Virus record (IMG/VR): IMGVR_UViG_3300040811_001959
DNA: 64,000 nucleotides
Origin: a virus
Taxonomy: Duplodnaviria; Caudoviricetes
Reading direction: 5' to 3' (one strand)
Shown: positions 40,429 to 61,279 of the stretch, one piece after another
Numbering within the stretch: the stretch's first letter is position 1
How the letters are laid out: each line of letters opens with the position of its first letter
The notes under the pieces: model-generated
Told to the model about the DNA's origin: nothing
Databases searched by the model: none
What the model saw: the letters and a program-made list of their open reading frames with translations, nothing else
Position numbers and translations under genes: made by a program

Positions 40429-40866
40429 ATGAAAGAAATAGTTTGTAGTGGGGCGCTAATTTACAGTAAAAAAGAAAAAAGGTTTTTATTTTTGCATAGG
40501 ACAAAAGGCAAAAATAAAAACTTTTGGGGGTTAGTGGGTGGTATTACCGAAAAAGAAGAAACTCCTTGGACTGGCTTGCAAAGAGAAATTGTTGAAGAAA
40601 TTGGTCCTATTAGTATTTGTAAAAGTATACCATTAGAAACTTTTGTAAGTAATGACAATCATTTTCATTTTTATACCTATCTCTGTTTAGTAGAAGAAGA
40701 ATTTATTCCGCAATTAAACGATGAACATGATGGGTATGCATGGACATCATTATCAAAATGGCCTAGACCGCTACATCCTGGTCTTAGAAATACCTTAAGT
40801 GTTAAAATTAATCAAGTAAAATTAGAAACAGTAATTAAATTATTAGATTTATTAGCAAGTACCTAA
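40429..40866 (+). CDS. NUDIX hydrolase
   Basis: Nudix box GGITEKEETPWTGLQREIVEEIG. Confidence 0.9.
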   Translation: MKEIVCSGALIYSKKEKRFLFLHRTKGKNKNFWGLVGGITEKEETPWTGLQREIVEEIGPISICKSIPLETFVSNDNHFHFYTYLCLVEEEFIPQLNDEHDGYAWTSLSKWPRPLHPGLRNTLSVKINQVKLETVIKLLDLLAST

Positions 40867-41453
40867 ACCTTTAACTGTGTCATTGACTGGTTGTTTACTA
40901 TTCCTCTGATAAAAGTATTAAAAGATAAACTAATCCTAGGTAAATCTGATACATTTGGCGTAACTAGATGTTCTAAATTGCTAGGAAAAATTAATATTGT
41001 TCCCGGATCAGGGCAAAAAGTCATAGATTTAGCATTAAATAAATTTGGAGTTTCAATTTCATATTCAAGAGTTTGATATTGTCCAGTGATAAAATTTAAT
41101 AATCCAGTATCTTTATCGGCCTGTAATATAACTATACCTGAATAAACAGAATTAGGATGCCAATGTCTATGGTGCATTTGATCTCTAATAGATTTGTTAA
41201 GCCAACTTTCTGTTATATAAATTTCAGTCTGTTTTTTGACACTTAAAACATCATAAAAATAATCTTGTAAAGAAAGCATTACTTGCTCTTTGAGTATTGA
41301 AAATTCTGGCATTTCTAACACGTCGGTGCTCGTGCTTATAAAATTGTTATAATTTTCTGCCCATACAATATTATCAAGATTGACACTATCTATATCTATA
41401 CGTCCCTCGTATAATGGTTGGCTAAAAAGCGGATGAATACCTAATTCATTCAT
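40863..41453 (-). CDS. Fe(II)/2OG oxygenase-like (TIGR02466-type, HxH)
   Basis: 'HWHPNSVYSGI', 'FPSNLEHLV', 'RISLSFN'. Confidence 0.8.
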   Translation of the reverse strand: MNELGIHPLFSQPLYEGRIDIDSVNLDNIVWAENYNNFISTSTDVLEMPEFSILKEQVMLSLQDYFYDVLSVKKQTEIYITESWLNKSIRDQMHHRHWHPNSVYSGIVILQADKDTGLLNFITGQYQTLEYEIETPNLFNAKSMTFCPDPGTILIFPSNLEHLVTPNVSDLPRISLSFNTFIRGIVNNQSMTQLKV

Positions 41454-41483
41454 ATTGTTTTCCTTTTATTATATATACTTTAT

Positions 41484-41840
41484 ATGGAAGAAAAAGTTAA
41501 AAAAACTGATTGGGGATACGAATTAATATGGGCATCACATCCTACCTATACGGGAAAAATTTTAGTATTCGAAGGTTTAAATGCTCGTACAGATATGTAT
41601 CTTCATAAAACAAAAAATAAAAGTTTGTTTGTAAATAGTGGAAAATTTAAAATTAGATGGATTGAAACCAGTAATGGCGAAATTAAAGAAGTAGAATTTC
41701 TAGAAGGTAATACTTTTGATGTTCCTGCAATGATGCCAATACAAATTTGCAGTCTAGCATACAATGGATCGATTGCAGAAGTTTCTGATAACAATCAAGA
41801 CGATGTTTGTATAATTTTACAATCAAAAAATATTGGATAA
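41484..41840 (+). CDS. Cupin protein (mannose-6-phosphate isomerase type II-like)
   Basis: 'KKTDWGYE..W', 'GKIL', 'HKTK'. Confidence 0.6.
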   Translation: MEEKVKKTDWGYELIWASHPTYTGKILVFEGLNARTDMYLHKTKNKSLFVNSGKFKIRWIETSNGEIKEVEFLEGNTFDVPAMMPIQICSLAYNGSIAEVSDNNQDDVCIILQSKNIG

Positions 41841-41843
41841 ATT

Positions 41844-42119
41844 ATGTTGCCTTCTTTACAAAATTCGTCTAATGTTAGAAATAATTTAGCTAGGTACAGT
41901 CATAAAATACAATATATTAAAAATATTAAAGCAAAAAATAAAGCACTTATAGCCTTAGAAAATTTAAAAAATGCTATCGCAGATATTGAACAAGCTCATC
42001 GAATTAGAACTTCAGGCGATTTACGTCCAAATTTGTTTGATTACCACAGAGAAAAAATTTTTTTATTTAGAAAAGAAATTGAAAAATTAATTAAAGAAAA
42101 TACTCAAAAGAAAAAATGA
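41844..42119 (+). CDS. Hypothetical helical protein
   Basis: 91-aa ORF in operon. Confidence 0.5.
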   Translation: MLPSLQNSSNVRNNLARYSHKIQYIKNIKAKNKALIALENLKNAIADIEQAHRIRTSGDLRPNLFDYHREKIFLFRKEIEKLIKENTQKKK

Positions 42120-42940
42120 TATTTAAATCAAAAAAAAAATGGGTTAGATTTTATTGTTTAGACGAAAATGTTGCAACATTATATCCTTTAATTAAATCAA
42201 AAGCAGTAATTCGAAACTGGAATAATTTAGCAAGCACAGAAAGGAATCGTCCTGAACAAGGATCACAGACTGTTTTAAATTGTCCTGCTATTAAATTAGT
42301 AAAAGATTTTGGATATGTATTAACTGCTCCTGCAGATTTTGTTATAAAATCTGGAGATGAGTCTGCTTATTTTTCCTGGGAAACACCTTTTATATTTAAA
42401 AGGTCAAGTGAACGGTATACTTTTGGGGGTACCGATTATTACATCGATTGGCATAGTCATGCTCAGGTTGAACCAATTATTCCAAAGAGCAATACCCAAG
42501 TTAATAAACCATATTTACACACTGCAGTAAAAGTAGAAACTCCATGGAGGATAAAGGCAAGCAGTGATATAGTTTTATTACAAATTCCTGTTACATACAA
42601 TAATGAAGAAAGATTTACTGCTGCTATAGGAATCGTTGATCCAGAATATATGCATGCGGTCACTGTACAGTTGTTTTGGCATGTAACTAACAGCGAAACA
42701 CTTGTAAGAGCAGGAACTCCACTAGCACAATATGTTCCAATTCATAGGAACTTTTTAGAAAAAAACAGTATAGATTTTATTGTGGATAAAGCTACAGATG
42801 TAGAAAAAGAACTAGAAGATGCGTATGCCTTTGCCAATCATAGCAGATTTCCTCGGACGGATACTGCAAACAATAAAATTAAAATTATAAAAAATTTGTT
42901 CAACTATTTTAGAAAAAAATATCCTAAACAAAAGATTTAA
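42116..42940 (+). CDS. Hypothetical protein, possibly dUTPase-like beta fold; paralog of 55289..56077
   Basis: 'NCPAI...GYVLTAPADF', 'ETPWR', 'AGTPLAQYVPI'. Confidence 0.55.
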   Translation: MIFKSKKKWVRFYCLDENVATLYPLIKSKAVIRNWNNLASTERNRPEQGSQTVLNCPAIKLVKDFGYVLTAPADFVIKSGDESAYFSWETPFIFKRSSERYTFGGTDYYIDWHSHAQVEPIIPKSNTQVNKPYLHTAVKVETPWRIKASSDIVLLQIPVTYNNEERFTAAIGIVDPEYMHAVTVQLFWHVTNSETLVRAGTPLAQYVPIHRNFLEKNSIDFIVDKATDVEKELEDAYAFANHSRFPRTDTANNKIKIIKNLFNYFRKKYPKQKI

Positions 42941-42942
42941 AA

Positions 42943-43521
42943 ATGAAAATAGAAAATTCGGTTGGTATTTTTGATAACGTTTTAAACACAGACGAATGCA
43001 AAAAAATAATTGATCAATACAATTTATTAGCAGGACTTAATTTATCTTTTAATCGTATAGATTTAGGTTCTTTTGATAGTCATAGAATTAAAGATAACGC
43101 TGTATTTTTACTAGAAGAAAAATCTATGCGTCTTTTGCCTACAATGGATTTTTTAGAAACTTTTTTGAATAAATTTTGGAATTGTTACAAACAATACACA
43201 GATCATTATAGTGTTATAAAAGAAGCAGGTAATCATTATATTAGATCAATGAAATTACAAAAAACTCTACCAGGCGAAGGTTATCATATATGGCATTTTG
43301 AAAATGATAGTGCCGAAAAGTGCTCTAGATTGTGTGCGTGGGGATTATATTTAAATACAATAAATGACGGCGGAGAAACAGAATTCCTTTATCAAAGTAT
43401 GCGGGTTTCTGCGTTAGAAGGAAGGTTAATATTATGGCCTGCAACCTACACGCATACTCACAGAGGAAATCCTCCTTTAAAAGGAGAAAAATATTTACTA
43501 ACAGGTTGGCTAGAGTACTAA
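42943..43521 (+). CDS. Prolyl-4-hydroxylase-like Fe(II)/2OG oxygenase
   Basis: 'YHIWHFE', 'GGETEF', 'HTHRG', 'KYLLTGW'. Confidence 0.88.
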   Translation: MKIENSVGIFDNVLNTDECKKIIDQYNLLAGLNLSFNRIDLGSFDSHRIKDNAVFLLEEKSMRLLPTMDFLETFLNKFWNCYKQYTDHYSVIKEAGNHYIRSMKLQKTLPGEGYHIWHFENDSAEKCSRLCAWGLYLNTINDGGETEFLYQSMRVSALEGRLILWPATYTHTHRGNPPLKGEKYLLTGWLEY

Positions 43522-44132
43522 TGGAAATTTTAAAACTTTTTCCTATAGATTTTTTTGTTTTTTATAACAAAAATTTTGATAATAAAAAGCTAATTGCAAA
43601 TTTAGAAACATTAGAAGATATACAAATAAAAAAAACTACTCAAATTAGTTTACTAATTAATTTAAAAAACAATAAAAACTTTCAAGATTTATTTAATTGG
43701 TTTAGTGACTGTTTAAAAGAAGTAAAAAAAATTAAGCAATATGATTGTGATCAAATAAAAATAACAAATAGCTGGGTAAATGTTTCATTAGCAGATTACA
43801 ACATGTATTTAGATACACACAAACACAGTATGAGTTTTTACAGTGGTATATATTACTTAACAGACGGATCTGCTACAACCTTCATTGATCCATTTGAACA
43901 AGCTATTGATACACAATTGCAGGTATTAAAATTTAATTATCACCCAGAAGAAAAAATTAGTCCCGAACCAGGAAAATTAATAATTTTTCCTAGTTACATT
44001 TATCATAAGAGCGATATACATATCGCAAATACTTCAAGATACATTATAAGTTTTAATACAATGCCAACGGGTAAAATTAACTATAATTTAGCAACAGACT
44101 CAAAAATTAATATTAAAATTGAAGATGATTAA
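43521..44132 (+). CDS. Fe(II)/2OG oxygenase-like (TIGR02466-type); start revised to 43521
   Basis: 'HKHSMSFYSGIYY', 'FPSYIYH', 'RYIISFN'. Confidence 0.8.
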   Translation: MEILKLFPIDFFVFYNKNFDNKKLIANLETLEDIQIKKTTQISLLINLKNNKNFQDLFNWFSDCLKEVKKIKQYDCDQIKITNSWVNVSLADYNMYLDTHKHSMSFYSGIYYLTDGSATTFIDPFEQAIDTQLQVLKFNYHPEEKISPEPGKLIIFPSYIYHKSDIHIANTSRYIISFNTMPTGKINYNLATDSKINIKIEDD

Positions 44133-45615
44133 CGATATAATTATTTTAGGAGGAGGAAATGCAGGATTAATGGCTGCTATATATCTAAAAACTGCTATTC
44201 CTTCTTTAAATTTGTCAATAATAAAATCTGATAAAATTGGAACTATAGGTGTTGGCGAAGGTTCTACAGAACATTGGAAATTATTTGCAGATGCAGTTGA
44301 CATTAGCATGGTAGATCTCGTAAAAGAATGCGGTGCAACGATTAAAATTGGTATTAAATTCGAAAATTGGCACGGTGATAACACAAGTTATTTCCATAGT
44401 TTGCCCGAGTTTTTAGTAAATACAGATCCGTATTGCGGTGCACCATATACTTTAATGCGACTTATAGGCAATGGAATTTCCTCAGAAAAATTACATTGGG
44501 ATTTACCGTTACAAGGTTATGTTAAAGAACCTTTCACTGATTATTATCAATTCCATTTTGACAGTGAAAAATTAAATCTTTTTTTAGAAAATAAAGCAAA
44601 AGCATTAAATATTAAATTTGTAATTGCTGATATTGTCGATGTTTCTGTAGATAATGAAGGATTTGTAGAATCTATAATAGATAATAACAACAATAAATAT
44701 TTTGCTGATTTTTTTATAGATAGTAGCGGGTTTAGGCGGGTTATATCATCTAAGTTAGGGTCTACTTGGACAGACTGGTCAAAATATTTACCATTAAACT
44801 CAGCTGTTGCGTTTCAAACACCCAGTCAAAAAGATATTCCAGTTTTTACTTTAGCAAAAGCCATGGATGCAGGATGGCATTGGCGGAGTCCAGTACAAGA
44901 TCGATTTGGTAATGGATATGTATTTAGCGATGCTTTTATTAATGAAGAAACTGCAGTCAACGAAATACAAAAATATTTTCCTGATACTATCAACATTGGT
45001 AGGAAAATTAATTTTATCTCAGGAAAAATTGACAAAGCATGGACTAAAAATTGTGTATCAATTGGATTAAGCAGTAATTTTGTAGAACCTTTAGAAGCAA
45101 GCAGCATCAGTACAACTATACAACAAGTCAGATTATTAGCAAGTTCGTTATGGAATTGGTCTCGGAAAGATGTATCTACCAGTAAAAATTATAATAAGAT
45201 TTTTGATGATATGTTATATAATATTTTAGATTTTATACAACTGCACTATTTTACAAAACGTGACGATACTGCATTTTGGAAATGGTGTAGTAATGAAATG
45301 ACTGTAACAGATTTTAATAAAGAAAATTTAGAACTATTTTCAAATAATTTTGTAAATCAAATTTTATTACCTGAGGATTTTACTAACCGTACATATAGGA
45401 TTTATGATTGCTTAAATTGGATACAGGTAATGCACGGCTTAAGAATGTTTAATCAAACAAATATATTACAACTCTTTAAGACAAGATTTTCGCAATATCA
45501 AGAATATGACGAATTGCAAATTTCTTATGTTCCTAACAAATTAACAGAAGAATGGTATTCTAGTAGAGAAGCATTAGAGTACATGAAATCTATTTCAACT
45601 AATTATGTATTATGA
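44125..45615 (+). CDS. Flavin-dependent halogenase 1 (tryptophan-halogenase family)
   Basis: GGGNAG, 'GVGEGS', catalytic-Lys 'ATIKIGIKF', WHWRSP, FVEPLEASS. Confidence 0.9.
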   Translation: MINDIIILGGGNAGLMAAIYLKTAIPSLNLSIIKSDKIGTIGVGEGSTEHWKLFADAVDISMVDLVKECGATIKIGIKFENWHGDNTSYFHSLPEFLVNTDPYCGAPYTLMRLIGNGISSEKLHWDLPLQGYVKEPFTDYYQFHFDSEKLNLFLENKAKALNIKFVIADIVDVSVDNEGFVESIIDNNNNKYFADFFIDSSGFRRVISSKLGSTWTDWSKYLPLNSAVAFQTPSQKDIPVFTLAKAMDAGWHWRSPVQDRFGNGYVFSDAFINEETAVNEIQKYFPDTINIGRKINFISGKIDKAWTKNCVSIGLSSNFVEPLEASSISTTIQQVRLLASSLWNWSRKDVSTSKNYNKIFDDMLYNILDFIQLHYFTKRDDTAFWKWCSNEMTVTDFNKENLELFSNNFVNQILLPEDFTNRTYRIYDCLNWIQVMHGLRMFNQTNILQLFKTRFSQYQEYDELQISYVPNKLTEEWYSSREALEYMKSISTNYVL

Positions 45616-47120
45616 TAGATAAAATCTGTATAGTAGGTGGCGGAACAAGTGGATACATTGCAGCGTTAATGCTTAGATCTGCATATCCTAATTTAGATAT
45701 ACAATTAATTGAAAGTTCTAAAATTGGAATTGTAGGAGTGGGCGAAGGAACTACAGAACATTTCCGTAAGTTCATTATACATTCGAACATCAATATCTTT
45801 GATTTATTTAGAGAAACAGATGCAACTTTTAAAATTGGAATCAAATTTCAAAATTGGTTAGGAAATAATAAACATTATTGGCATAATCTTACTGAATTTT
45901 TTGTTACACAATCTGATACTAATGGTCTTTTTACATCATGGTTACAATTAGTGATGGATAATGTAGAGCCAGATAAAACTGTTTGGGATTTAGCTATTAA
46001 TGGTAAACATATTGCTCCTTTAGATAAAATTATATCACAATTCCATTTTAACACTTTTAAATTGAATTCTTTTTTTAGGAATCTTTCAATAACAAGGAAT
46101 ATCCATATTGTTGACACTGAAATAGTTGATACTATACTAGATGAAAATAATAATATTAACCATATTATCGACAAAGATAACAAAATTTATGCTGCAGATT
46201 TTTTTATTGATTGTACAGGTTTTGCAAGGATACTGGCTAGAAAATTAGAAGTTAAATGGCATACTATATTTGATAAACTTCCAATGAATAGTGCCTTGGC
46301 ATTTTCAACCGATATTACCGAAGTAATACCAAATTATACATTATCGACAGCAATGTCTAGTGGATGGGCATGGAGGATTCCTACACAGGAAAGGTATGGC
46401 AATGGATACGTTTTTTGTAACAATTTTATAAATCCTGATAGGGCGTTAGATGAAATAGAAAATTATTATGTAACCAACAATATTACAAAAAAAATTACAG
46501 ATGCAAGATATTTTAACTTTACAAGTGGGTTTTCTGATAAATTTTGGTATAAAAATTGTGCATTTGTTGGGCTAAGTGGATTGTTTGTAGAACCACTAGA
46601 AGCAACTTCTATAGGAGCCGTAATACAACAATGTTTTTTATTAACTAATTCTTTGTATTTTTTCCACAAAAATGATACCAAAGTAAGTAAAATACACAAT
46701 GACAGGATGAATAAGATTGTTAGTAACATAATTGACTTTATTCAACTTCATTACCTTACAAGTAGAAAAGATTCAAATTTTTGGAAATTTTGCAAAAATG
46801 ATTTAAAATTAACTGATTTTAATGCAGAGTATCTTGATTATATGTCTTATAATTTTCCTGATAGTCAACTTTTTCAAGATACTATGTTAATGTTTAATTG
46901 TTTAAATTTTGGCCAAGTTATGTTAGGTTTGAATTTAATATCAAAAAAAGGACAGGAAAATATTAAACAGCAATTTCAAAAACATTTATATATCAATTCT
47001 TTAAAATTAGAAGATATATATAATGACATGTCAAATCCAGATTTGCAAACCTATTCACACAATGAAGCTATTGAATTATTAAAAGAATTAGATAAACATG
47101 AATACAAATACAAGTTATGA
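45612..47120 (+). CDS. Flavin-dependent halogenase 2
   Basis: GGGTSG, 'ATFKIGIKF', WAWRIP, FVEPLEATS. Confidence 0.92.
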   Translation: MIDKICIVGGGTSGYIAALMLRSAYPNLDIQLIESSKIGIVGVGEGTTEHFRKFIIHSNINIFDLFRETDATFKIGIKFQNWLGNNKHYWHNLTEFFVTQSDTNGLFTSWLQLVMDNVEPDKTVWDLAINGKHIAPLDKIISQFHFNTFKLNSFFRNLSITRNIHIVDTEIVDTILDENNNINHIIDKDNKIYAADFFIDCTGFARILARKLEVKWHTIFDKLPMNSALAFSTDITEVIPNYTLSTAMSSGWAWRIPTQERYGNGYVFCNNFINPDRALDEIENYYVTNNITKKITDARYFNFTSGFSDKFWYKNCAFVGLSGLFVEPLEATSIGAVIQQCFLLTNSLYFFHKNDTKVSKIHNDRMNKIVSNIIDFIQLHYLTSRKDSNFWKFCKNDLKLTDFNAEYLDYMSYNFPDSQLFQDTMLMFNCLNFGQVMLGLNLISKKGQENIKQQFQKHLYINSLKLEDIYNDMSNPDLQTYSHNEAIELLKELDKHEYKYKL

Positions 47121-48615
47121 TGTTGTAATATTAGGAGGAGGTATAGCAGGATGGCTAACGTCCTTATTTGTGAAAAGAATTTATCCAAACTTAAAAATTT
47201 TAGTTATTGAGAATTCTAAACATTTACCAATTATAGCAGGCGAAAGTGGCGCCACTACGTTTAATGATATTTTAAACTACTTAAATATTGATTTACAAGA
47301 TTTTCAAAAAAAAACAAATGCTACTCCTAAGCTAGGAGGAAAATTTTACAACTGGAGTAAAAATACCGAGTTTATTCATGCTTTACAAACTGATTATTCA
47401 CCATGGCTCGATAACTATAAAACATTTAATAATGAGTTTAGTTTTAAAAGTATGAATAATTTTTTACAAAAAGAAAGAGCTGGTTATTTTGTAGAATTGC
47501 ACTGTATTAAGAATAAAATACCTTTGTCAAAATTATTTTTTGCTGATGCTTTTATAGAGCAAAATAAAGTTCCTAAATCTAATGATAGTCGTTTACAGCC
47601 TATGTGGCACTATGAAAGTAGAGCAACTGCTGCTTATCTTAAAGAAATCTCTTTTAATAGAGGAATTATTTATAAAGATGCAATATTTGTAGATGCAGAA
47701 CGTAACTCTAATAACGGTAATATAAGCTTTTTGCAATTAAAAAATGGCGAAAAAATATACAGTAAATGGTTTTTTGATTGTACTGGCTTTGCACGATTAT
47801 TATTAGGAAATACGTTAAAAGAACCAATAATTGATAATAGTTATTATTTTCCAGCTCATTCTGTAGTAGCATGGTGGGGAGAAACAGAACCTAATGTTGT
47901 CACAAAAGCATATGCAATGGATTATGGGTGGTCTTGGAATGTAAATTTAAAAAATCGTAATGGTAGTGGATATATATATGATAGCAACCATACAACTTTA
48001 GATAATGCAATTCAAGAAGCTGAAAAAAAATTTAATAAAAAAATTGATCCTGTAGCTAATTTTACGTATCAACCAGGATTTATGGAAAACTCCTGGAAAA
48101 ATAATGTTATAGGCATAGGATTAAGCACTGGATTTTTAGAACCTTTAGAGGCAAATGGTATTGCTTTAATTTGTGAATCTTTATTTGCTTTAGACGATTT
48201 ATGGAATCCATATGAAGTTAATACTACACTACAAAATAGATATAATGAAAGATTGTATACTATTACAGTTGATATAAGAGATTTTTTATTGTTGCATTAT
48301 ACAGGACAAAAAAATAATACAGATTTTTGGAATATGTATCTTAATGAGATAGATTTAAGCGAATCCTTAAAAAATAAAATCTATTTGTTAACTGAACATG
48401 TCGAACATTCCAAAGAAAAACCTTTTTTTAATGGTTACTCGCCGACTGCATGGTTAATGGTAATGCAGGGTATGAATTATTTTGATAAAGAGTACAATAT
48501 AAACAATTCAGTAATAAATAATTTTTCTAATGTGTTAAATACAATTACAAATATTTATAGTAAAGAAATTGATAGCCATATTACTATAACAAAATGGCTT
48601 AATAATGAAAGGTAA
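47098..48615 (+). CDS. Flavin-dependent halogenase 3 (divergent)
   Basis: GGGIAG, 'ATPKLGGKF', WSWNVN, FLEPLEANG. Confidence 0.85.
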   Translation: MNTNTSYDVVILGGGIAGWLTSLFVKRIYPNLKILVIENSKHLPIIAGESGATTFNDILNYLNIDLQDFQKKTNATPKLGGKFYNWSKNTEFIHALQTDYSPWLDNYKTFNNEFSFKSMNNFLQKERAGYFVELHCIKNKIPLSKLFFADAFIEQNKVPKSNDSRLQPMWHYESRATAAYLKEISFNRGIIYKDAIFVDAERNSNNGNISFLQLKNGEKIYSKWFFDCTGFARLLLGNTLKEPIIDNSYYFPAHSVVAWWGETEPNVVTKAYAMDYGWSWNVNLKNRNGSGYIYDSNHTTLDNAIQEAEKKFNKKIDPVANFTYQPGFMENSWKNNVIGIGLSTGFLEPLEANGIALICESLFALDDLWNPYEVNTTLQNRYNERLYTITVDIRDFLLLHYTGQKNNTDFWNMYLNEIDLSESLKNKIYLLTEHVEHSKEKPFFNGYSPTAWLMVMQGMNYFDKEYNINNSVINNFSNVLNTITNIYSKEIDSHITITKWLNNER

Positions 48616-48621
48616 AAAATA

Positions 48622-52391: not shown

Positions 52392-53124
52392 AATTTAATT
52401 TGTACCTTTCTCTATCAATAGAAAAATGTTTTGGATCAGTTTTATATTTATTCCAACACGGTATGCTCATACTTAATCGCTTACTACATGGATTTGCATA
52501 ATGATACATTCTTGACGGAATATACAAAACATCTCCTGGTTCTAACACAACATCTAAAGCAATAGATAAATCTTTTTCTTTAATAAAATTATTCATAGTA
52601 CCGGTAGGAAACAAATTTGATAATCTATTATTATAGACTTTCCACGGAGTTGTTCCTTCTACTTGAATAATAAAATTAGACGGATAATCTTCATGTATGT
52701 AAAAAGAACCATTTTTTTTAATGTTACAGTACACATGAATAGCTGCATTCACATAAAATTCTTGTTCAAAATATTTTAACAGTTGATTAGTGGCATCGTT
52801 GAATGATCCATAATTTAAAATTACAAGTCCAAATCCATTGTTAATTTTATCAAATATAAATGATTTGTCTTGTACAGTTTTTGACCAAACCCAAGTTTTA
52901 TTATAAGTTGGTATTTCTATTTTACTATTTGTTTGCGGATCAATAACTTCAAAGTCGAATAATTCAGGATAATTTAAACATTGTTCTACGTTGTGCCAAT
53001 TTAGATATTTTTCTGGTGCAGGAAAAATATTTTTCATATATAACGGATTATCATTTAAAAATAAATTACTTTGTTTTTTAAAATTTTCAAAAAAATTATT
53101 CATATATCCTATCAATCCTAACAT
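52384..53124 (-). CDS. JmjC/cupin-4-type oxygenase
   Basis: 'HED', 'NFIIQVEG', 'LEPGDVLYIP', 'YHYA', 'RLSMSI'. Confidence 0.85.
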   Translation of the reverse strand: MLGLIGYMNNFFENFKKQSNLFLNDNPLYMKNIFPAPEKYLNWHNVEQCLNYPELFDFEVIDPQTNSKIEIPTYNKTWVWSKTVQDKSFIFDKINNGFGLVILNYGSFNDATNQLLKYFEQEFYVNAAIHVYCNIKKNGSFYIHEDYPSNFIIQVEGTTPWKVYNNRLSNLFPTGTMNNFIKEKDLSIALDVVLEPGDVLYIPSRMYHYANPCSKRLSMSIPCWNKYKTDPKHFSIDRERYKLNYE

Positions 53125-53695
53125 TAAATGCTATTGATATTCTATCTTCGTCAGTAGGATTTCTAGAAACACCGTGAGCTAAATGTCCTGGAAATAATAA
53201 TAATTTTCCAGTTTTTGGTTTATAACTAATAGCACCGCAACTAATTTGAGTATAATTTTCGATAAAACTTTGACTTGTAATAATATAATCTGCTAGACTA
53301 TTTTTATAAAAAGTAATATCTCCTTGATTTTCTGTTGCTTTTAGATAAAATGCTCCAGATAAAAATGAATTATCATGTATGTGATGTGAGTTAGAATGTC
53401 CTTTTTTATTAATATTAAACCAATAATTTTCAATTTTTACTTTTGATAATTTTTCTATATATCCATAATCTCTGACGCATTGTTCTGCTTGTTCTAATAT
53501 TTTATTATTTAAAATTTGTAATGGTTTAAATGCTGTAGGTAAAAAATCTTTACTTTGCCATCCTCCGTCATTACTAAGTTCGCGACCTGTTGGGTCATAT
53601 TTGTATATATCGTAACACAAATTAAGTAAATCAGTTGTATCTATATTAGTCTCTTCCCACCATATCGGCGTCGGAAAATAAAGGTCAAAATGCAT
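53096..53695 (-). CDS. Fe(II)/2OG oxygenase-like (TIGR02466-type)
   Basis: 'WFNIN', 'HIHDNSFLSGAFY', 'FPGHLAHGV', 'RISIAFN'. Confidence 0.85.
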   Translation of the reverse strand: MHFDLYFPTPIWWEETNIDTTDLLNLCYDIYKYDPTGRELSNDGGWQSKDFLPTAFKPLQILNNKILEQAEQCVRDYGYIEKLSKVKIENYWFNINKKGHSNSHHIHDNSFLSGAFYLKATENQGDITFYKNSLADYIITSQSFIENYTQISCGAISYKPKTGKLLLFPGHLAHGVSRNPTDEDRISIAFNVRIDRIYE

Positions 53696-54488
53696 ATCTT
53701 AAATCATTTAAAGTTTTTGGCACAGGTATAAAGCTAAAAGCAAACGAATGACTCCATCTAAAATCAACTTCAGGATCTACATATGCTAGGTGCGGTATGT
53801 TTGCTTTGTACATTGTCATAGTTTTTTCGTTTGTAGGTATTGACGCTAACAAATTAAATCCCCATTTCTTTAATTCCTCATCTGGCATGTTAAACCAATT
53901 ATTTGCCCTAGTAGCATTCCTGCTTATTTCTACCCATTGTTTATGAAATTTGTGGGTTTCGTCAACTTGAAAATCATAAACAGTTTCATACATTTTTCCT
54001 TCATAATGAAATAACTTTGTACATGACATGTCAAGAGAATGATCTGTAAACCATAAATTAGTAACTAAGCCATTAACATAATCTACGTGAGGAATTCTCC
54101 AGCAACTTATAGGTTTAGTTAATTCACGAAAGTATAAATTGCCCCATTCGTGTATTTGCTCTAAATATATATCATTAGAAATATTTTTTGAATAAAAATC
54201 AATAAGTAAATAGCAAATATCTTTATAAATCCATTCTGGTAAGTGTATGCTATCAAATGGGTTAGGATCAAAATTCGTTAATGCGCTATTGTCTTTTTGT
54301 ATTGGAAAAGATGCTATAAGATTTTTAAAAATTTCAAAATGCTTTATGTCAAACGGCGGATCAGTTATCCAATAACCATAATCTTTATCAATTGAAAAAT
54401 ATTTACAATTCCAATTGTCAACATTGTGAATTTTAATTACTTTGTCAAAATTATTTGCATCAGGATAGCATCTTTTAAATTCTGTCAT
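53685..54488 (-). CDS. Fe(II)/2OG oxygenase-like
   Basis: 'RIPHVD', 'NLWF', distal 'PHLAY'. Confidence 0.65.
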   Translation of the reverse strand: MTEFKRCYPDANNFDKVIKIHNVDNWNCKYFSIDKDYGYWITDPPFDIKHFEIFKNLIASFPIQKDNSALTNFDPNPFDSIHLPEWIYKDICYLLIDFYSKNISNDIYLEQIHEWGNLYFRELTKPISCWRIPHVDYVNGLVTNLWFTDHSLDMSCTKLFHYEGKMYETVYDFQVDETHKFHKQWVEISRNATRANNWFNMPDEELKKWGFNLLASIPTNEKTMTMYKANIPHLAYVDPEVDFRWSHSFAFSFIPVPKTLNDLRYAF

Positions 54489-55066
54489 CTTATGTTAAAA
54501 GTAAATATAATTCTTTCGTGATCACTTAAATTGGGTTGGACTCTGTGTTTTAACCAGCCGGGAAATATTAAAACATCATTAGTGGTTACAGGTAATTCTT
54601 TATAAAGAGATTCTTCAGGAAAAATAGGATATATAGATTTATGATATTCTAATGGGTCTTTAAACTCTATATATCCAGAATTATCAGGAACTTGTAAGTA
54701 AGCCGTAACTACAAATGTTATAAAATTATGACTATGTTCTAAAGTTTGTCCACCTTTATAATGAATGTTAATCCATGATTCTGTAACTTCATTATATTCA
54801 TAAATAAATTTATTTTCTTTCCTAATAAAATAAATCATACTTCCTAGCCATTCTTGGAATTCACTTAGTTCTTCCCAAGTATGTGGCTGTTCAGTGTTGC
54901 TAGCTTTAATTGACGATTTTGAATTTCCTATTTCTAATAAACTTGTTTCTGAATTATTTTCTAATAGGTTATAAATTTTAGGTTTTAATATTTCAAATTC
55001 AAATGGAAATTGAAATTTGTAAATATAAGGAGTAAAAAGATTAACTCCATTATTCAATAGGTTCAT
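54485..55066 (-). CDS. Fe(II)/2OG oxygenase-like (TIGR02466-type)
   Basis: 'SWINI', 'EHSH', 'FPGWLKHRV', 'RIIFTFN'. Confidence 0.85.
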   Translation of the reverse strand: MNLLNNGVNLFTPYIYKFQFPFEFEILKPKIYNLLENNSETSLLEIGNSKSSIKASNTEQPHTWEELSEFQEWLGSMIYFIRKENKFIYEYNEVTESWINIHYKGGQTLEHSHNFITFVVTAYLQVPDNSGYIEFKDPLEYHKSIYPIFPEESLYKELPVTTNDVLIFPGWLKHRVQPNLSDHERIIFTFNIR

Positions 55067-55292
55067 TTTCTATTAGCTCCAACGCTAATTGTAGACCCAT
55101 TATTGTTCCTTCTATTTTAAGTAAATCAGAACTTAGTTCTTGTCTGGATGCAAAATCTATACTAGTAATACCGTATGGGTTAAGTTTTAAATCATTAAAC
55201 TCATTTTCAATACGTTCTAAGTCATTTTTTATTTCTAATGACTTATTTTCAAGATTTTTTAATGCATTGTTTATTTTATCAACATAAATCAT
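55050..55292 (-). CDS. Small coiled-coil hypothetical protein
   Basis: 80 aa with a heptad-like pattern. Confidence 0.55.
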   Translation of the reverse strand: MIYVDKINNALKNLENKSLEIKNDLERIENEFNDLKLNPYGITSIDFASRQELSSDLLKIEGTIMGLQLALELIENEPIE

Positions 55293-56077
55293 TTTTTTCC
55301 TTTTGATAATATTCTATTTAGTCTTTTAATTCTAGCCAAAACAGAATCTTTCCTGTAGATTGAAGAATTTGAAGCATAAACAAAATCTCTTTCAAGTTTA
55401 TAATCAGCATTAGTTGCTTCTTCAACTGTTAAAGTGTAAGTAGAATCTTGCAATATCTTTTTATCTATTGGTAAAATTTGACAAAGAGGAGTGCCTGCTT
55501 TAATCAAAATTTCGTCATTTAATTTTTTCCAATACAACTGGACATTTAAAACATGCATGTAACTTGGATCTAAAAAACCAGTTGCAGCTTCAAACCTATC
55601 TTCATTATTATAAGCAACTGGCATTATAAGCAGTATGATATTATTTGAAACTTCAACCCTCCACGGAGTTTCAACTTTAATTACAGTCTTAAGGATATTA
55701 TCTTTATCATTTAATAAAGGTTCGGTTTGTATAGAATTGTGTGTATTTATATATGCATATTCTGCCATTTGTCCACATTTATTAAACTGATAACTTTCGT
55801 CCCAATAAACACTTACTCCATCTCCGTTTGTTTTTATTATAAAATCAGCAGGTGCAGTTAAAATATATCCTGTGTTTATTATTTTCTGTATTCCTGGACA
55901 ATTTTGAGAACTTTTAGTATTAGTATCTACTTCTTGTTTTATTTTTAACCAATCTCTTTTTACAAGTCGGGATTTTTGTATTGGATACAATTTTGCAACC
56001 CCTGGTTCAAGAGTATAAAATCTAATAAATTGTTTTTTTTTAAAAAAAGAGGTCAGTTTACTTGTTAATATATTCAT
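55289..56077 (-). CDS. Paralog of 42116..42940 (possible dUTPase-like fold)
   Basis: 'NCPGI...GYILTAPADF', 'ETPWR', 'AGTPLCQILPI'. Confidence 0.55.
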   Translation of the reverse strand: MNILTSKLTSFFKKKQFIRFYTLEPGVAKLYPIQKSRLVKRDWLKIKQEVDTNTKSSQNCPGIQKIINTGYILTAPADFIIKTNGDGVSVYWDESYQFNKCGQMAEYAYINTHNSIQTEPLLNDKDNILKTVIKVETPWRVEVSNNIILLIMPVAYNNEDRFEAATGFLDPSYMHVLNVQLYWKKLNDEILIKAGTPLCQILPIDKKILQDSTYTLTVEEATNADYKLERDFVYASNSSIYRKDSVLARIKRLNRILSKGKK

Positions 56078-57674
56078 CTATGCCATTATATATATTATCT
56101 TTTAAAAAATCATAATGACTAGGAAGTGTAAGAACATGTTTTGTAATAGCCTCTCTATATTTAAAATAAGCACGTTTAGTAAAACCAATTTGTTCTTTTT
56201 TTGTTGCTAAATTTTTTGTATCATTAAAATTAAATATAAGATTTTTTGTAGCAATAGATTTTAACCCCATTCCAGCTGCAATGTACATATTTCCTATATA
56301 ATCGCTATGATAATGATGATTTATCATGCTTCCTAGAAAATTTGTATATTGATTTTGATTTAAAACAAATTCATTAAATTGTTCCGGAACATACTCATTA
56401 ATTTGTGTACACCATCTCCAATAAGGTGTATCAGTTCTCTGTGACAATGCATAATGTTGCGATACAAAATCTCTAAATTTTGTTACATCAAAATCAACTG
56501 CTAAATTGTAGGCATCTTTTTCTGCCCTTGTTACATATCCATTTCGTCTATTTAAAACATCTAATAATTTTACTATATTTTCGTGAGTGGTTAGCAAACC
56601 TGTTGATTCTAACGGCTCTACAAATCCGTAACTAAGTCCTATTCCTAAAACATTATTCAACCATGCTCTTCTTCTTTTACCGTGTCTAATACTAATAGGA
56701 AATAGTTCTGCTTTATCTGCTATTTTTTTACCATAAATTTTTTCTAAATGTTTACTAAATTCAATAGCGGCATTCTCTTTTTCAATAAATCTTTTAGAAT
56801 AAACATATCCTGTTCCTATTCTGTTCCATAACGGAATAGTCCAAACCCATCCATTATTTAGAGCAAAACAATCTGTTACATTTAGCATCTGCTTTTTTCT
56901 ATCTGTGTAGGGCAAACGACATGCCCATGCGCTATCATTAGCCAAATATTTTGTAAATGGCATAAATGCAGAACCCATCCAATCTTCTAATAGAAGTGAT
57001 TTGAATCCTGTGCAATCTATCCAAAGATCAGCAGTTAGAGTTCTTCCGTCGATTAAAAGTATGTCTGTTATATTGTTTAAGTGATCTTTTTTAAATGAAT
57101 GAGCATCACCTATTATGTGCTCAACACCATTTGGTATTGCTACATTATCTTTTAAATATTGACCAAATAATTGCGCATCAAGATGATATGCTGTGTCAAA
57201 ATCAAAATCAAAATTTCTTAATAATTTATCTTTGTTTTTTGTTTGTTTATTATATTTTGCTAATAATGTGTTTCCGGTGCAAAAAAATTCAGCAAATGAT
57301 TCCGGAGGAAACTCGTCAGGATAAAGCGTTGCTAATTCAGACCAGGAATCAGTTCCTCCGGGTTTATCTGTATAGTCTAATCCTTCTGAGAATGGATATT
57401 CAAACGATTCGCCTTGCCCAATCCTAAAATTTGTAAAACGTATTGAATTTTTATATGTTGCATTGCATTTTGGCATCCAATCTTCATCTTTTAGATCTAA
57501 AAGCCGCAAAAATCTATTAATATGTCCTAGTGTACTTTCACCTACACCAACTGTTCCTATTATTTTAGATTCTACAAGTGTTATAGATAAATGGGGACAA
57601 CATTTGCTTAAAGCGGCTGCTGTCATCCAGCCTGAACTTCCGCCGCCTATAATTACAACTTTTTTAATGTGCAT
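56058..57674 (-). CDS. Flavin-dependent halogenase 4
   Basis: GGGSSG, 'GVGES', 'ATYKNSIRF', WVWTIP, FVEPLESTG. Confidence 0.93.
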   Translation of the reverse strand: MHIKKVVIIGGGSSGWMTAAALSKCCPHLSITLVESKIIGTVGVGESTLGHINRFLRLLDLKDEDWMPKCNATYKNSIRFTNFRIGQGESFEYPFSEGLDYTDKPGGTDSWSELATLYPDEFPPESFAEFFCTGNTLLAKYNKQTKNKDKLLRNFDFDFDTAYHLDAQLFGQYLKDNVAIPNGVEHIIGDAHSFKKDHLNNITDILLIDGRTLTADLWIDCTGFKSLLLEDWMGSAFMPFTKYLANDSAWACRLPYTDRKKQMLNVTDCFALNNGWVWTIPLWNRIGTGYVYSKRFIEKENAAIEFSKHLEKIYGKKIADKAELFPISIRHGKRRRAWLNNVLGIGLSYGFVEPLESTGLLTTHENIVKLLDVLNRRNGYVTRAEKDAYNLAVDFDVTKFRDFVSQHYALSQRTDTPYWRWCTQINEYVPEQFNEFVLNQNQYTNFLGSMINHHYHSDYIGNMYIAAGMGLKSIATKNLIFNFNDTKNLATKKEQIGFTKRAYFKYREAITKHVLTLPSHYDFLKDNIYNGIDEYINK

Positions 57675-57694
57675 AAATTATTCCTGTTATGGGA

Positions 57695-57701
57695 TATTTA
57701 T
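57695..57701 (-). promoter_or_regulatory. Late promoter box upstream of halogenase 4
   Basis: 'cATAAATAtcccataacaggaataatttATG'. Confidence 0.55.
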
Positions 57702-57716
57702 GCAAAGATATTTAGA

Positions 57717-58211
57717 TTATGAATTAGAATTGAGCCAAACGGAATATCTACGCCATGCTGGTAGTTCCATAGTTGACGGAACTGGAGATCTATCAATAGA
57801 AGGTTCTGTATTTTCTAGTGCAGCCTGTTGATCCTCTGCAGTTAAAAATTCTTCTTTAACTGTTGGTTTGTCTATTATATCTTTTACCAAACTAATATGC
57901 TGGTACCATGTGCCATTTTGGCTTATTGTACCAGATTCTTTTAGTTCATGATAAAGCATGTCTAATTGTTCGCCAACTGTTCCATATGCAACTTGCCTTG
58001 CAACTGCGGTATTGGTAAAACCGCCATCTCTTTCTACCCATACCATATCTTGTTGTGCCGGACTCCATTCTAGTGTCCAATCTAAAGTAACATTATCCGG
58101 AGCATTAACCCATGCTATAGTTGCATCTGGGCCGTCATAAATTTCATATTCTTCTCCAGGATCGCGAATTTCACTTACAAAACCTTGATACGACATTAAA
58201 ACTTTTTTCAT
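57717..58211 (-). CDS. Probable tail-fibre assembly/associated protein
   Basis: 'ARQVAYGTVGEQLDMLY...W..HI..VK' directly after the fibre genes. Confidence 0.5.
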   Translation of the reverse strand: MKKVLMSYQGFVSEIRDPGEEYEIYDGPDATIAWVNAPDNVTLDWTLEWSPAQQDMVWVERDGGFTNTAVARQVAYGTVGEQLDMLYHELKESGTISQNGTWYQHISLVKDIIDKPTVKEEFLTAEDQQAALENTEPSIDRSPVPSTMELPAWRRYSVWLNSNS

Positions 58212-59065
58212 TTGTATTCCTCTATAACGATTATGCCTGGTCTACCATCTGATCCCCTGTGACCATGAAAATATCCTCCGGTACCGCCTGTGCCAGGAGC
58301 AGAGTGACCTTGATGATTATGAGCAAAATGACCACCTTGGGGATGTCCTCCTGGTGCTGCTCCTCCAAAATAACTGGTGCCACCTGGTCCAAAACTGTGA
58401 TGGTGGGCACCGCCACCGCCTTGATGTATATTTAAATTGCCACCTGATCCGTTTCCGCTCACACCGCCAGAGTGTTGATTCTGTCTGTTAGCTCCATGGC
58501 CTCCACTTGCGCTTACATATGGTCCAAAAGATGTTGTTCCGCTATTTCCTCCTGCACCAGAATAATAAGTACCACTGCCACCGCCACCTATATTACAACT
58601 TACAGAACTGATGCTATCTACGTTCATTATTCTCTCTGCATACCCTCCGGCTCCACCTGACTCTCCGTGCCCACTTGCACCACCACCAGGACCTTGTACT
58701 TTTACCCTAATATACCTAACTCCGGCTGGTTTATTCCATGTTCCGTTTGATGTAAATACTGAAATTCCACTGAACCCTAAATTAGCATATTCTAGAGCGC
58801 TACCCGAAGCACTTGTTCGTCTTAGGAGTTGTTGATTACTTCCTATTGTTGATAATCCAGTTCCTCCCTTATCTCGTGGCATTGTTCCTGCCACCGTTGA
58901 AGTGCTATAATCAATTGCTCCATCTTTGATATTATCTTCTATAATAGTATTATCTTCTATGTTAGCAGTGGCAATAGTATTATTGGCAAAACTTGTTGTT
59001 TCTAACGATTCGTTTGTTACAGATTGATTTGTTAGATTTTTTAGTAGTTGATAATTAAACGCCAT
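58208..59065 (-). CDS. Gly/His-rich fibre-tip-like protein, paralog C
   Basis: 'FTSNGTW.KP', 'GGG', 'HPQGGHFAHNHQG', 'G.PGIIVIEEY'. Confidence 0.7.
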   Translation of the reverse strand: MAFNYQLLKNLTNQSVTNESLETTSFANNTIATANIEDNTIIEDNIKDGAIDYSTSTVAGTMPRDKGGTGLSTIGSNQQLLRRTSASGSALEYANLGFSGISVFTSNGTWNKPAGVRYIRVKVQGPGGGASGHGESGGAGGYAERIMNVDSISSVSCNIGGGGSGTYYSGAGGNSGTTSFGPYVSASGGHGANRQNQHSGGVSGNGSGGNLNIHQGGGGAHHHSFGPGGTSYFGGAAPGGHPQGGHFAHNHQGHSAPGTGGTGGYFHGHRGSDGRPGIIVIEEYK

Positions 59066-60086
59066 AATTAACTTTCAATAAAATTCTGTTATAACAATAA
59101 TGCCTGGTTTACCATCTGATCCTCTGTGACCCGAATAATATCCAGATGTACCGCCTGTGCCAGGAGCAGAGTAACCTTGATGATTATGAGCAAAATGACC
59201 ACCTTGGGGGTGTCCGGCAGGTGCAGGTCCTCCCCAAAATGAAGATCCTCCCATTCCAGAAGATCTTTGTTCGTGGCTTCCGCCACTACCACAATGTAAA
59301 TTTAAACTACCACCAGATCCTCCTCCACTAAGTCCGCCATTATGTTGATTATGTCTGTTCGCTCCATGGCCTCCACCTGCACTAAGATAAGGTCCAAAAC
59401 TACTTCCAGCTCCGTTACCTCCTGCACCAGAATAATATGTACCACCGCCGCCGCCACCTATAGTTACTGCTACGCTTGAAATATTTGCATTTTCAACTTC
59501 TAAAATTCTTTCACTATAACCCCCGGCAGCTCCTGACTCTCCGTGGCCACTTGCACCGCCACCGCCTGCTTGCACTTGTACCCAAATAAAACGAACATTT
59601 GACGGTCTAGTCCATGTACCATTACTTGTAAAAACTACCATTCCTTTTATACCATATGGTCTAAATGATAAAGAATTGTTAGCACTATTTGACATTAAAA
59701 TTTCAAAAGGATTTCCACTGGCAGTTGTATTAGTTCCGCCTTTGTTTACAGGTAATGTACCTGACACACTAGTTGATGTGAGATTAACACTATTGTCTGC
59801 AAATTTTGCAGCTTCGATAGTATTACTGGCAATTTCTGTATTTGTAATTTCTTCATTTCCTATATCTGTTCCTGTTATTGAACCACTTATAAATGAATCA
59901 TTTGTTAATTTTTTTAATAGTTGATAATTAAATGCCATTGAAATTGCCTTAATAATATTCTGTGATAATTATAATACCTGGTTTTCCGTCTGATCCTCTA
60001 TGACCATGAAAATGAGCGCCTGCTCCGCCTGTGCCGGGTGCAGAGTAACCTTGATGATTATGAGCAAAATGACCACCTTGGGGATG
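58307..60086. repeat. 36-39-bp identical segment shared by the three fibre paralogs (58307-58345, 59174-59209, 60048-60086)
   Basis: accttgatgattatgagcaaaatgaccaccttgggg. Confidence 0.9.
59075..59938 (-). CDS. Gly/His-rich fibre-tip-like protein, paralog B
   Basis: Same architecture as its neighbours. Confidence 0.7.
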   Translation of the reverse strand: MAFNYQLLKKLTNDSFISGSITGTDIGNEEITNTEIASNTIEAAKFADNSVNLTSTSVSGTLPVNKGGTNTTASGNPFEILMSNSANNSLSFRPYGIKGMVVFTSNGTWTRPSNVRFIWVQVQAGGGGASGHGESGAAGGYSERILEVENANISSVAVTIGGGGGGTYYSGAGGNGAGSSFGPYLSAGGGHGANRHNQHNGGLSGGGSGGSLNLHCGSGGSHEQRSSGMGGSSFWGGPAPAGHPQGGHFAHNHQGYSAPGTGGTSGYYSGHRGSDGKPGIIVITEFY

Positions 60087-60800
60087 ATTTCCTGGAGCAC
60101 CACCTCCAAAGAATGTGTTTGCACAACTTTGGGCACTATATGCATGATGGTTAAATCCGCCACCTGAATGTAAATTTAAATTGCCACCCGATCCGTTTCC
60201 GCTCACTCCTCCTGAGTGTTGATTCTGTCTATTAGCTCCATGACCTGCACTTGCACTTACATATGGTCCAAAACTACTTCCGCCTCCATTACCTCCTGCA
60301 CCAGAATAATATGTACCACTGCCACCGCCACCTATAGTTACTCCTACAGAACTGATTCCTGTTACATCAAGATATCTCTCAGCATAGCCACCGGCACCAC
60401 CGCCTTCTCCGTGACCACTGCCACCACCGCCACCGCCTTGTACTTGAACTTTGATATATCTTACATTTGCAGGTCTAGTCCATGTACCATTCCCTGTAAA
60501 AACACTCATTGATCTTAAACCATGTTCGTGGTAATCTAATGAGCTACCTGTACTTCGTATAGCTTTGAAGGCTCCTCCTAAAGATGTTAATCCGGTTCCG
60601 CCTTTTGAAGTTGGTAATGTACCAGTTGTTTTGCTATTTGAATTTACAACAGCATCGTCGGCAAATTTGTTTGCGGTTATAGAATCATCAATCAAATTTG
60701 CATTTACTATTTGATCTGTTCCTATATTTGATTGTAGTAAAGTGTTATCAATTAAGCTGTCGTTTGTATAATTTTTTAAAGTCTGATAATCAAACGCCAT
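59949..60800 (-). CDS. Gly/His-rich fibre-tip-like protein, paralog A; start revised to 60800
   Basis: Same architecture; AGGA RBS before MAFDYQ. Confidence 0.7.
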   Translation of the reverse strand: MAFDYQTLKNYTNDSLIDNTLLQSNIGTDQIVNANLIDDSITANKFADDAVVNSNSKTTGTLPTSKGGTGLTSLGGAFKAIRSTGSSLDYHEHGLRSMSVFTGNGTWTRPANVRYIKVQVQGGGGGGSGHGEGGGAGGYAERYLDVTGISSVGVTIGGGGSGTYYSGAGGNGGGSSFGPYVSASAGHGANRQNQHSGGVSGNGSGGNLNLHSGGGFNHHAYSAQSCANTFFGGGAPGNHPQGGHFAHNHQGYSAPGTGGAGAHFHGHRGSDGKPGIIIITEYY

Positions 60801-60808
60801 AGTCATCC

Positions 60809-61270: not shown

Positions 61271-61279
61271 TAATCATCC

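Follow-up and report, generated by a model that had tools for sequence, protein, structure and literature searches.

A halogenase and oxygenase island beside Gly/His-rich tail-fibre genes in an uncultured T4-type phage, and its possible role in fibre tailoring

A stretch of 64,000 nucleotides (nt; the window, to which all positions refer) from the virus record IMGVR_UViG_3300040811_001959, a 144-kb IMG/VR viral contig with a CheckV completeness of ~39%, contains between positions 40863 and 57674 four flavin-dependent halogenases, 13 Fe/2-oxoglutarate (2OG)-type oxygenases, one small cupin and two paralogous dUTPase-fold proteins. The minus-strand part of this island follows a set of Gly/His-rich tail-fibre genes, and the order of fibre genes, a gene for a 164-amino-acid (aa) protein and a VirX1-type halogenase recurs in other phage lineages. 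We propose, with slightly less than even confidence, that the island is expressed late and tailors the Gly/His-rich tail-fibre proteins encoded next to it. This proposal draws on the collinearity with known cyanophage clusters, the fixed fibre-164-aa-halogenase order, a minimal module in a divergent metagenomic locus (L009), a conserved late-type promoter box, the absence of a scaffold enzyme, oxygenases that resemble protein hydroxylases, the clustering of VirX1 with the halogenases MibH and BrvH together with its open active site, and the near-invariant C-terminal domain of the fibres; contigs from metatranscriptomes add weak support. The island itself is not new: its minus arm is a Syn9-type cluster, which is found here in a different, larger phage and together with a second arm.

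The two arms of the island converge, one on the plus strand (41484-48825) and the other on the minus strand (57674-48820), with their meeting point at 48820/48825, and genes in both are close-packed, mostly with overlapping stop and start codons. An earlier reading of the window made from the letters alone (the sequence-only reading) had described two converging operons with four halogenases and about 13 Fe/2OG oxygenases, the minus arm being continuous with three His/Gly-rich fibre paralogs and a fibre-assembly-like gene. This description was borne out: the arms are arranged as stated, Pfam Trp_halogenase is found in four open reading frames (ORFs; E 4e-79 to 8e-103), 13 oxygenases are recognised by Pfam, PHROG or motif (one of them without an iron-binding His), and the minus arm follows the paralogs and the 164-aa gene. 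The fibre block and the minus arm consist of the following features.

61628..64000, minus strand: large protein of tail-fibre/baseplate type at the head of the conserved block, 673 aa counted from its first ATG, with a frame that is still open where the window ends
60809..61600, minus strand: two small fibre-associated genes (106 aa and 153 aa; phrog_11338 and phrog_31104), whose order is kept in relatives
58208..60806, minus strand: three fibre paralogs of 285-287 aa (Pfam Gly_rich_2; phrog_863, E ~1e-52)
57717..58211, minus strand: 164-aa Trp-rich protein of the Syn9 gp40 family (phrog_1787), between the last fibre paralog and the halogenase
57695-57702, minus strand: putative T4-late-type promoter box CATAAATA, 21 nt 5' of the ATG of halogenase 4
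56058..57674, minus strand: halogenase 4, VirX1-type, 538 aa (Pfam E 8e-103)
55289..56077, minus strand: dUTPase-fold protein with an invariant Cys (Syn9 gp43 family; phrog_7084)
55050..55292, minus strand: 80-aa helical protein (Syn9 gp44 family), with Syn9 and S-CREM1 counterparts at the same position (45-55% identity)
48820..55066, minus strand: ten Fe/2OG-type oxygenase genes, at 54485, 53685, 53096, 52384 (JmjC), 51807, 51110 (DUF6445), 50602, 49991, 49440 and 48820

BLASTP comparison reveals that the minus arm is collinear gene for gene with Syn9 gp38-gp54 (30-54% identity) and with S-CREM1 (39-61%). Each oxygenase best matches its own counterpart in a near-collinear order (39-51% in S-CREM1 and 30-49% in Syn9), except that 49440 lies elsewhere in the run and 50602 only matches (22-25%) the counterpart of 51110. 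Relatives surface at the protein level only: a megablast search of the island against cultured phages returned none, a tblastn search with a whole fibre paralog, which is limited by the low-complexity filter, returned S-CREM1 only, and a search for relatives with a single protein gave near-identical contigs only. The dioxygenase-halogenase neighbourhood of Syn9 was described, and called unprecedented, by Iyer, Abhiman, de Souza and Aravind in 2010 (NAR, PMC2938197), who had already noted the dUTPase fold and the conserved Cys. Thus, the sequence-only reading erred in treating the system as undescribed, as the Syn9 version had been published with another proposal. Neither a coupling of the Syn9-type cluster to Gly/His-rich fibre genes nor a functional test of the cluster was found in the searchable literature.

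Such coupling is evident in the genomes of relatives, in line with the genomic linkage to fibre genes on which the sequence-only reading relied. In Syn9, S-CREM1, S-RIM44, P-TIM40 and P-RSM6, a large fibre gene is followed by two to three genes annotated as "tail fiber assembly" (Gly-rich), a gene of ~150 aa, one or two halogenases, a hypothetical gene and oxygenases, and the fibre linkage was seen in five cultured cyanophage genera. Homologues of the 164-aa protein were found in 20 cultured-phage records (~10 distinct phages), where they are located directly 5' of the halogenase in 20/20, and 114 metagenomic homologues were also detected. The dUTPase-fold gene lies directly 3' of the halogenase in the 14 records examined of 15, the one left out being S-RIM4 (weakest, 26% identity). 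Using the 164-aa family, 80 IMG/VR loci were recovered, many of them from related phages. Fibre paralogs are present in all 74 loci with at least 1 kb of upstream DNA (three paralogs in 72) and a halogenase in all 72 loci with at least 0.9 kb of downstream DNA, and the loci with full flanks also contain the dUTPase-fold gene and 9-11 oxygenase genes. The oxygenase run has an identical order in L078 and L089. The same overall order was observed in three metagenomic contexts picked for divergence. The most divergent locus, L009, which belongs to another phage type, has a Gly_rich_2 fibre gene, a 129-aa gene, one 2OG gene preceded by a CTAAATA box, a VirX1-clade halogenase (45%) and then a fibre-like gene. 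Enzyme number, whose comparison with the number of fibre paralogs the sequence-only reading had suggested, shows no simple proportionality to the latter in the few genomes compared (fibres and oxygenases: 3 and 10+3 in the window, 2 and 10 in Syn9, 1 and 9 in S-CREM1, 3 and ~6 in S-RIM44, and 1 and 1 in L009).

Outside the VirX1-type clade, the fibre linkage is partial. In S-SSM7 (L101, 98.2-100.8 kb), three Gly_rich_2 genes are located just 5' of a halogenase/2OG/carbamoyltransferase/heptose (sugar) cluster, and in HTVC008M a Gly_rich_2 gene is two small genes away from a run of four 2OG genes plus a "ferrochelatase"-type gene. S-MbCM6 shows no fibre-halogenase link. In the Gly_rich_2 paralogs of S-SSM7, the last 190 residues are rich in Cys (22-24) and not in His, and the high His content of cassette-linked fibres is only a tendency, as the S-B64 protein has 9 His without local linkage.

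A T4-type late transcription unit is expected to have a TATAAATA-like -10 box near its first gene, and the box CATAAATA, which the sequence-only reading had placed correctly directly before halogenase 4, occupies this position. Within 30-64 kb of the window, 7 of the 16 occurrences of ATAAATA lie within 60 nt upstream of a same-strand gene start versus 3.6% expected (rough binomial P ~7e-7), mostly 5' of structural genes. The box before the halogenase is exactly ATAAATA, 27-46 nt from the ATG, in 35 of 48 distinct upstream regions of relatives, and the remainder have CTAAATA or GTAAATA in the same place; hence the comparison favours late over early expression, a distinction that the sequence-only reading had considered decisive. 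In most relatives (L021-L097), a terminator (GC hairpin and T-run) is located between the 164-aa gene and the box, 40-90 nt 5' of the halogenase ATG. The window and its nearest relatives, L018 and L020, have no terminator and only a 42-nt gap, and the window keeps the box. The conserved late-type box and the preceding hairpin and T-run together imply that the cassette is its own late-type transcription unit beside the fibre unit. In two DNase-treated marsh metatranscriptomes, contigs near-identical to the window (0-7 differences) cover 57600-62450, are densest on the fibre genes and also fall on both enzyme arms in places. As these are contigs only, with DNA carry-over possible, they are weak evidence for transcription of the island and do not address its timing; the phage or a close relative appears to be active in a marsh habitat.

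The candidate substrates of the proposed tailoring are the three fibre paralogs, which are mutually 59-62% identical and score 29-42 bits against Gly_rich_2 (cut-off 24.3). Their N-terminal 95 aa are variable and the Gly/His-rich C-terminal domain is nearly invariant, with 11-14 His within the last 190 residues. In an alignment of 30 sequences, the mean column identity of this domain is 75%, and numerous His, Tyr, Asn and Pro positions as well as a single Trp are fixed; H133, H190, H198, H221, H241, H249, H251, Y142, Y168 and W110 are invariant or at least 90% conserved. No solved structural homologue of the Gly_rich_2 paralogs was found by sequence, and a predicted complex of halogenase 4 with the fibre C-terminal domain scored 0.00, which is evidence neither way. 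The 61628 protein at the head of the block matches phrog_9851 (tail fiber protein; E 1e-51) and has counterparts of 47-48% identity at the same position in L022, L066, L078 and L089. The model of the 164-aa protein (predicted local distance difference test, pLDDT, 83) has no PDB fold match, and this protein is possibly a fibre chaperone on the basis of weak Atlas leads only (XkdW and Caudo_TAP_N).

Halogenases of cyanophages have been known since 2005, and VirX1 is a prized iodinating biocatalyst. To our knowledge, the natural substrate is known for none of the cyanophage halogenases, including VirX1, nor for the Syn9 dioxygenase array. In the present record, the Trp_halogenase domain is full-length in the four ORFs (267-345 bits versus a cut-off of 21), and no others were detected in the 144 kb. 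The GxGxxG motif, the catalytic Lys (..AT.K..; PrnA K79) and the Glu of EPLE (PrnA E346) can be read in all four, whereas WxWxIP is intact in 56058 (WVWTIP) and 45612 (WAWRIP) and variant in 44119 (WHWRSP) and 47098 (WSWNVN). In the halogenase-4 family alignment (28 sequences), G10-G15, K75 and E353-E356 are invariant. Halogenase 4 matches PDB 6qgm (VirX1) over residues 3-531 (E 1.8e-191) and is 54% identical to the Syn9/Syn10 gene and 61% to that of S-CREM1; judged by sequence similarity, it is a VirX1 homologue. VirX1 forms a trimer, and its active site is large and open (PMC8407142); it clusters with MibH and BrvH, which are peptide/indole halogenases, and not with the enzymes that halogenate free Trp (PMC8269204).

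Six of the oxygenases were called at the Pfam 2OG/JmjC cut-off, one at the DUF6445 cut-off and two below cut-off, and the remainder by PHROG and synteny. Three are located in or near the plus arm (40863, minus strand; 42943 and 43434, plus strand) and the other ten in the minus arm, from 54485 to 48820. The metal triad HxD/E (or HxH)...H can be read in 12 of the 13, and 50602 lacks the first His. The minus-arm oxygenases are not recent duplicates because their mutual identity is only 20-40%. Several PHROG labels on oxygenase-like genes ("ferrochelatase", "DNA endonuclease V" and "minor coat protein") were rejected as carry-over, as these genes have 2OG motifs and their S-CREM1 counterparts are annotated as 2OG oxygenases. 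The JmjC oxygenase 52384 (JmjC_2, 60.9 bits) is nearest to NO66 (E 7.5e-9), JMJD5 and a putative Asn hydroxylase, and the nearest characterised relative of the 42943 protein is a Bacillus prolyl 4-hydroxylase. NO66/JMJD5 and the Bacillus enzyme hydroxylate protein residues. The Oxy_5-type oxygenase matches uncharacterised structures only. The gene at 50602-51123 (minus strand) is a DUF6445-type paralog of 51110-51814 in which the His of HxD is lost (YYPNFD versus VHDDD), and it is found at the same position in L078, L089 and L066; its product may be a non-catalytic partner.

Taken together, these features are compatible with the following course of events. During virion assembly, distinct oxygenases would each hydroxylate particular residues of the fibre C-terminal domain, and a VirX1-type halogenase, using reduced flavin from a host reductase, would attach a halogen (I, Br or Cl) to an aromatic or imidazole side chain that is activated, so that the outcome might be a chemically hardened or altered receptor-binding tip. 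In a more specific version, some ten oxygenases and between one and four flavin halogenases would form a dedicated late cascade that hydroxylates the fibre tips and places I, Br or Cl on their Tyr, His or Trp residues; this version is held more tentatively and appears to us possible rather than probable. The dUTPase-fold protein, the 80-aa protein and the three plus-arm halogenases fall outside the tailoring explanation.

Several observations weigh against fibre tailoring. The plus-arm halogenases, which are 34-40% identical to the P-SSM2, S-SCSM2R and HTVC008M type, form a different clade that is not fibre-linked in cultured phages, and halogenases of other clades, including relatives of the plus-arm enzymes, are found in auxiliary metabolic gene, sugar or terminase contexts. 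Gly_rich_2 genes of P-SSM2 and S-B64 are far from the halogenase. The 80 loci are not independent, and only about three to five separate lineages could be counted. Furthermore, the terminator splits the fibre unit from the enzyme unit in relatives; the two could therefore be neighbours because the site behind the fibre module serves as a common slot for accessory genes. No match to Flavin_Reduct was found in the 144-kb record (~39% complete), although reduced flavin could be supplied by a host enzyme. Finally, the motifs of the predicted dUTPase-like fold point to a nucleotide or another small ligand. Accordingly, the virion-protein modification cascade put forward in the sequence-only reading stands only in part: the fibre linkage and the late-type box are found in relatives, but the chemical steps are proposed ones and the plus-arm halogenases belong to a clade without fibre linkage in cultured phages.

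The main rival, which we regard as unlikely yet worth serious attention, is a secondary-metabolite pathway in which a host metabolite, short peptide or free amino acid would be processed by the oxygenases and halogenases one after another into a halogenated, hydroxylated compound such as a toxin, a siderophore-like molecule or a signal, with the fibre adjacency being incidental. For the Syn9 cluster, Iyer et al. suggested that halogenated secondary metabolites are made, and bacterial relatives of the dioxygenase families sit with halogenases, TonB receptors and non-ribosomal peptide synthetase (NRPS) genes (PMC2938197). Moreover, VirX1 halogenates many small heteroaromatics in vitro, azaindole-type ones being favoured (PMC8407142). 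The published proposal and the in vitro activity of VirX1 also count against fibre tailoring. The fixed order of several distinct oxygenases that are not paralogs is reminiscent of a stepwise pathway, and other phage halogenases occur among auxiliary metabolic genes. However, at the loci with gene families examined, we could not recognise in the cassettes a scaffold builder (NRPS, polyketide synthase (PKS) or ATP-grasp), a precursor peptide, a transporter or a resistance gene, and the island ORFs of the window include no NRPS/PKS-type family, core scaffold enzyme or recognisable precursor peptide in Pfam (unknowns searched to E 5). The sequence-only reading, too, had recognised neither a biosynthetic core nor a flavin reductase. 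The conserved late-type promoter and the strict fibre adjacency, including the minimal module between two fibre genes, also argue against a small-molecule product.

Late modification of host proteins or of the envelope, such as hydroxylation of ribosomal proteins or translation factors, or alteration of receptors against superinfection or for release, appears improbable. Ribosomal proteins are hydroxylated by the characterised enzymes closest to the JmjC protein, each of the many distinct oxygenases could have its own protein target, and one cyanophage virion preparation was found to contain a 2OG oxygenase (PMC12801897). Nevertheless, the fixed post-fibre position and the fibre-embedded minimal module would be left unexplained, and takeover functions are usually early rather than late.

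The dUTPase-fold proteins bear on the last alternative. The sequence-only reading had recognised two paralogous beta-fold proteins, and the paralogs do exist (42116, plus strand, and 55289, minus strand; 37% identity, phrog_7084); the predicted fold is dUTPase-like with dUTPase-like motifs, which the proposed modification of virion proteins does not explain. A model of the 55289 protein (pLDDT 90) has dUTPases as its top PDB matches in Foldseek (E 6e-5; template modelling score by target ~0.65), and this prediction agrees independently with the fold reported by Iyer et al. Both paralogs (262-274 aa) have motif-1/3/4-like segments, including the Asp and Tyr of G..D..Y, whereas motif 5 (C-terminal, P-loop-like) is absent; C60, APxDF, G..D.P.Y and AGTPL..Q are invariant in the family alignment. 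The 55289 protein is not a member of the dUTPase family. Each arm contains one dUTPase-fold copy, located beside a small helical ORF (91 aa in the plus arm and 80 aa in the minus arm). Nucleotide or DNA modification, in which the dUTPase-fold protein would bind a (deoxy)nucleotide and the halogenase and oxygenases would modify a base or a nucleotide-linked group, could draw on these motifs, on a nearby NUDIX gene, on the preference of VirX1 for azaindole-type heterocycles (PMC8407142) and on the general knowledge that the base modifiers AlkB and TET/JBP are 2OG enzymes, but we consider it very improbable, given that T4-type nucleotide-pool enzymes are generally early or middle rather than late, that no oxygenase matches AlkB or TET/JBP in Pfam, that the dUTPase-fold protein has no motif 5 and is only 11-15% identical to dUTPases, and that ten different oxygenases far exceed any known DNA hypermodification route.

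The plus arm and the genes next to it are as follows.

41484..48825, plus strand: plus arm, containing the cupin, the 91-aa gene, a dUTPase-fold gene, two oxygenases, three halogenases and a 67-aa ORF
41484, plus strand: cupin, 118 aa
plus arm, plus strand: 91-aa helical protein, adjoining the dUTPase-fold copy at 42116
42116-42940, plus strand: second dUTPase-fold protein (phrog_7084)
42943, plus strand: 2OG oxygenase
43434-44132, plus strand: 2OG oxygenase, whose listed ORF overlaps the preceding gene by 88 nt
44119-45615, 45612-47120 and 47098-48615, plus strand: tandem halogenases (Pfam Trp_halogenase)
plus arm, plus strand: 67-aa helical ORF
40863..41453, minus strand: solitary 2OG-FeII_Oxy_5 oxygenase (Pfam E 2e-19), divergent from the plus arm
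40429-40866: NUDIX gene

The true start of the 43434 oxygenase is probably the ATG at 43521, which overlaps the upstream stop by one base and gives a protein of 203 aa. A Pfam search with E up to 5 returned no match for the 164-aa, 80-aa, 91-aa, 67-aa or dUTPase-fold proteins. The layout of one VirX1-type halogenase in one arm and three tandem halogenases in the other is also present in four to five related records, among them G001-G003 and G005 (the last of 278 kb); the two-arm, four-halogenase arrangement is thus a lineage trait and not a peculiarity of this contig.

The source is a large, uncultured phage of marine or marsh origin, and its gene content (terminase, neck, sheath-stabiliser, tube and gp32/UvsX-like genes of T4 type) identifies it as a T4-superfamily myovirus. 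The G+C content of the window is 26-41%, with the minimum over the enzyme genes. The 144-kb record gave no match to Radical_SAM. The tail sheath (33115-36528, minus strand; 1137 aa) has its best matches in the jumbo phages Vibrio 2.275.O, PA5oct and Atu_ph07, not in Kyanoviridae. Because a jumbo-type sheath is combined with a cyanophage-like fibre/enzyme block, it is suggested that this block moves between phage lineages. A subtilase-family (Peptidase_S8) gene is located at 27437-29029 (minus strand) amid the structural region, with fibre-like genes on both sides.

The strict, lineage-spanning coupling to a near-invariant fibre domain and a late promoter provides a concrete candidate substrate for VirX1-type halogenases. 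If fibre tailoring is true, it would give these enzymes a natural role, and viruses would have their first example of a structural protein halogenated enzymatically as a post-translational modification. Phage-host recognition and virion stability in the sea would gain a new chemistry, and phages would be tied to the cycling of iodine and bromine. Should the reading prove wrong, the cassette would be a large, widespread, late-expressed viral small-molecule pathway, which is also of interest.

Among known systems, the Syn9/Syn10 cluster (gp41-gp54) is the counterpart of the minus arm. It has a VirX1-type halogenase, a dUTPase-fold protein with the Cys, a small helical protein and about ten dioxygenases, including a JmjC protein of the MINA/NO66 clade, and it is preceded by Gly-rich fibre genes and a gp40-like gene, with per-gene identities of 30-61%. 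Where Syn9 has two halogenases, the minus arm of the window has one; this arm also includes an additional, degenerate DUF6445 paralog, and one oxygenase has changed place. The second, converging arm is an addition and contributes another dUTPase-fold gene, two further oxygenases and three halogenases from a different clade; the phage of the window also differs in the jumbo-type, non-Kyanoviridae sheath of 1137 aa and in having no terminator before the halogenase. Halogenase 4 resembles VirX1 of cyanophage Syn10 (PDB 6QGM) over its full length (~54%, a figure taken from the Syn9/Syn10 gene) and in all motifs including WxWxIP, whereas the identity between halogenase 4 and the plus-arm trio is only 26-30%. 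Compared with trimeric dUTPases, the modelled 55289-56077 protein shares the beta-barrel fold and the motif-1/3/4-like segments but differs in its low identity (11-15%), ~100 extra residues, the missing motif 5 and an invariant Cys that is absent in dUTPases. Two more distant systems provide analogies. The mimivirus collagen lysyl hydroxylase/glycosyltransferase (PMC9546862) belongs to other enzyme families in a eukaryotic virus, and it involves true Gly-X-Y collagen, with no halogenase and no array of ten oxygenases known; it is not a homologue but an example of a viral 2OG oxygenase acting on the virus's own glycine-rich structural proteins, the mode of action proposed here for the island. 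The Nereis jaw protein Nvjp-1 (in PMC13120676, with reference to Birkedal 2006 and Broomell 2008) is an animal protein with no known dedicated flavin halogenase, and it offers a chemical analogy for the island, being a marine, Gly/His-rich protein that is halogenated and cross-linked at the surface.

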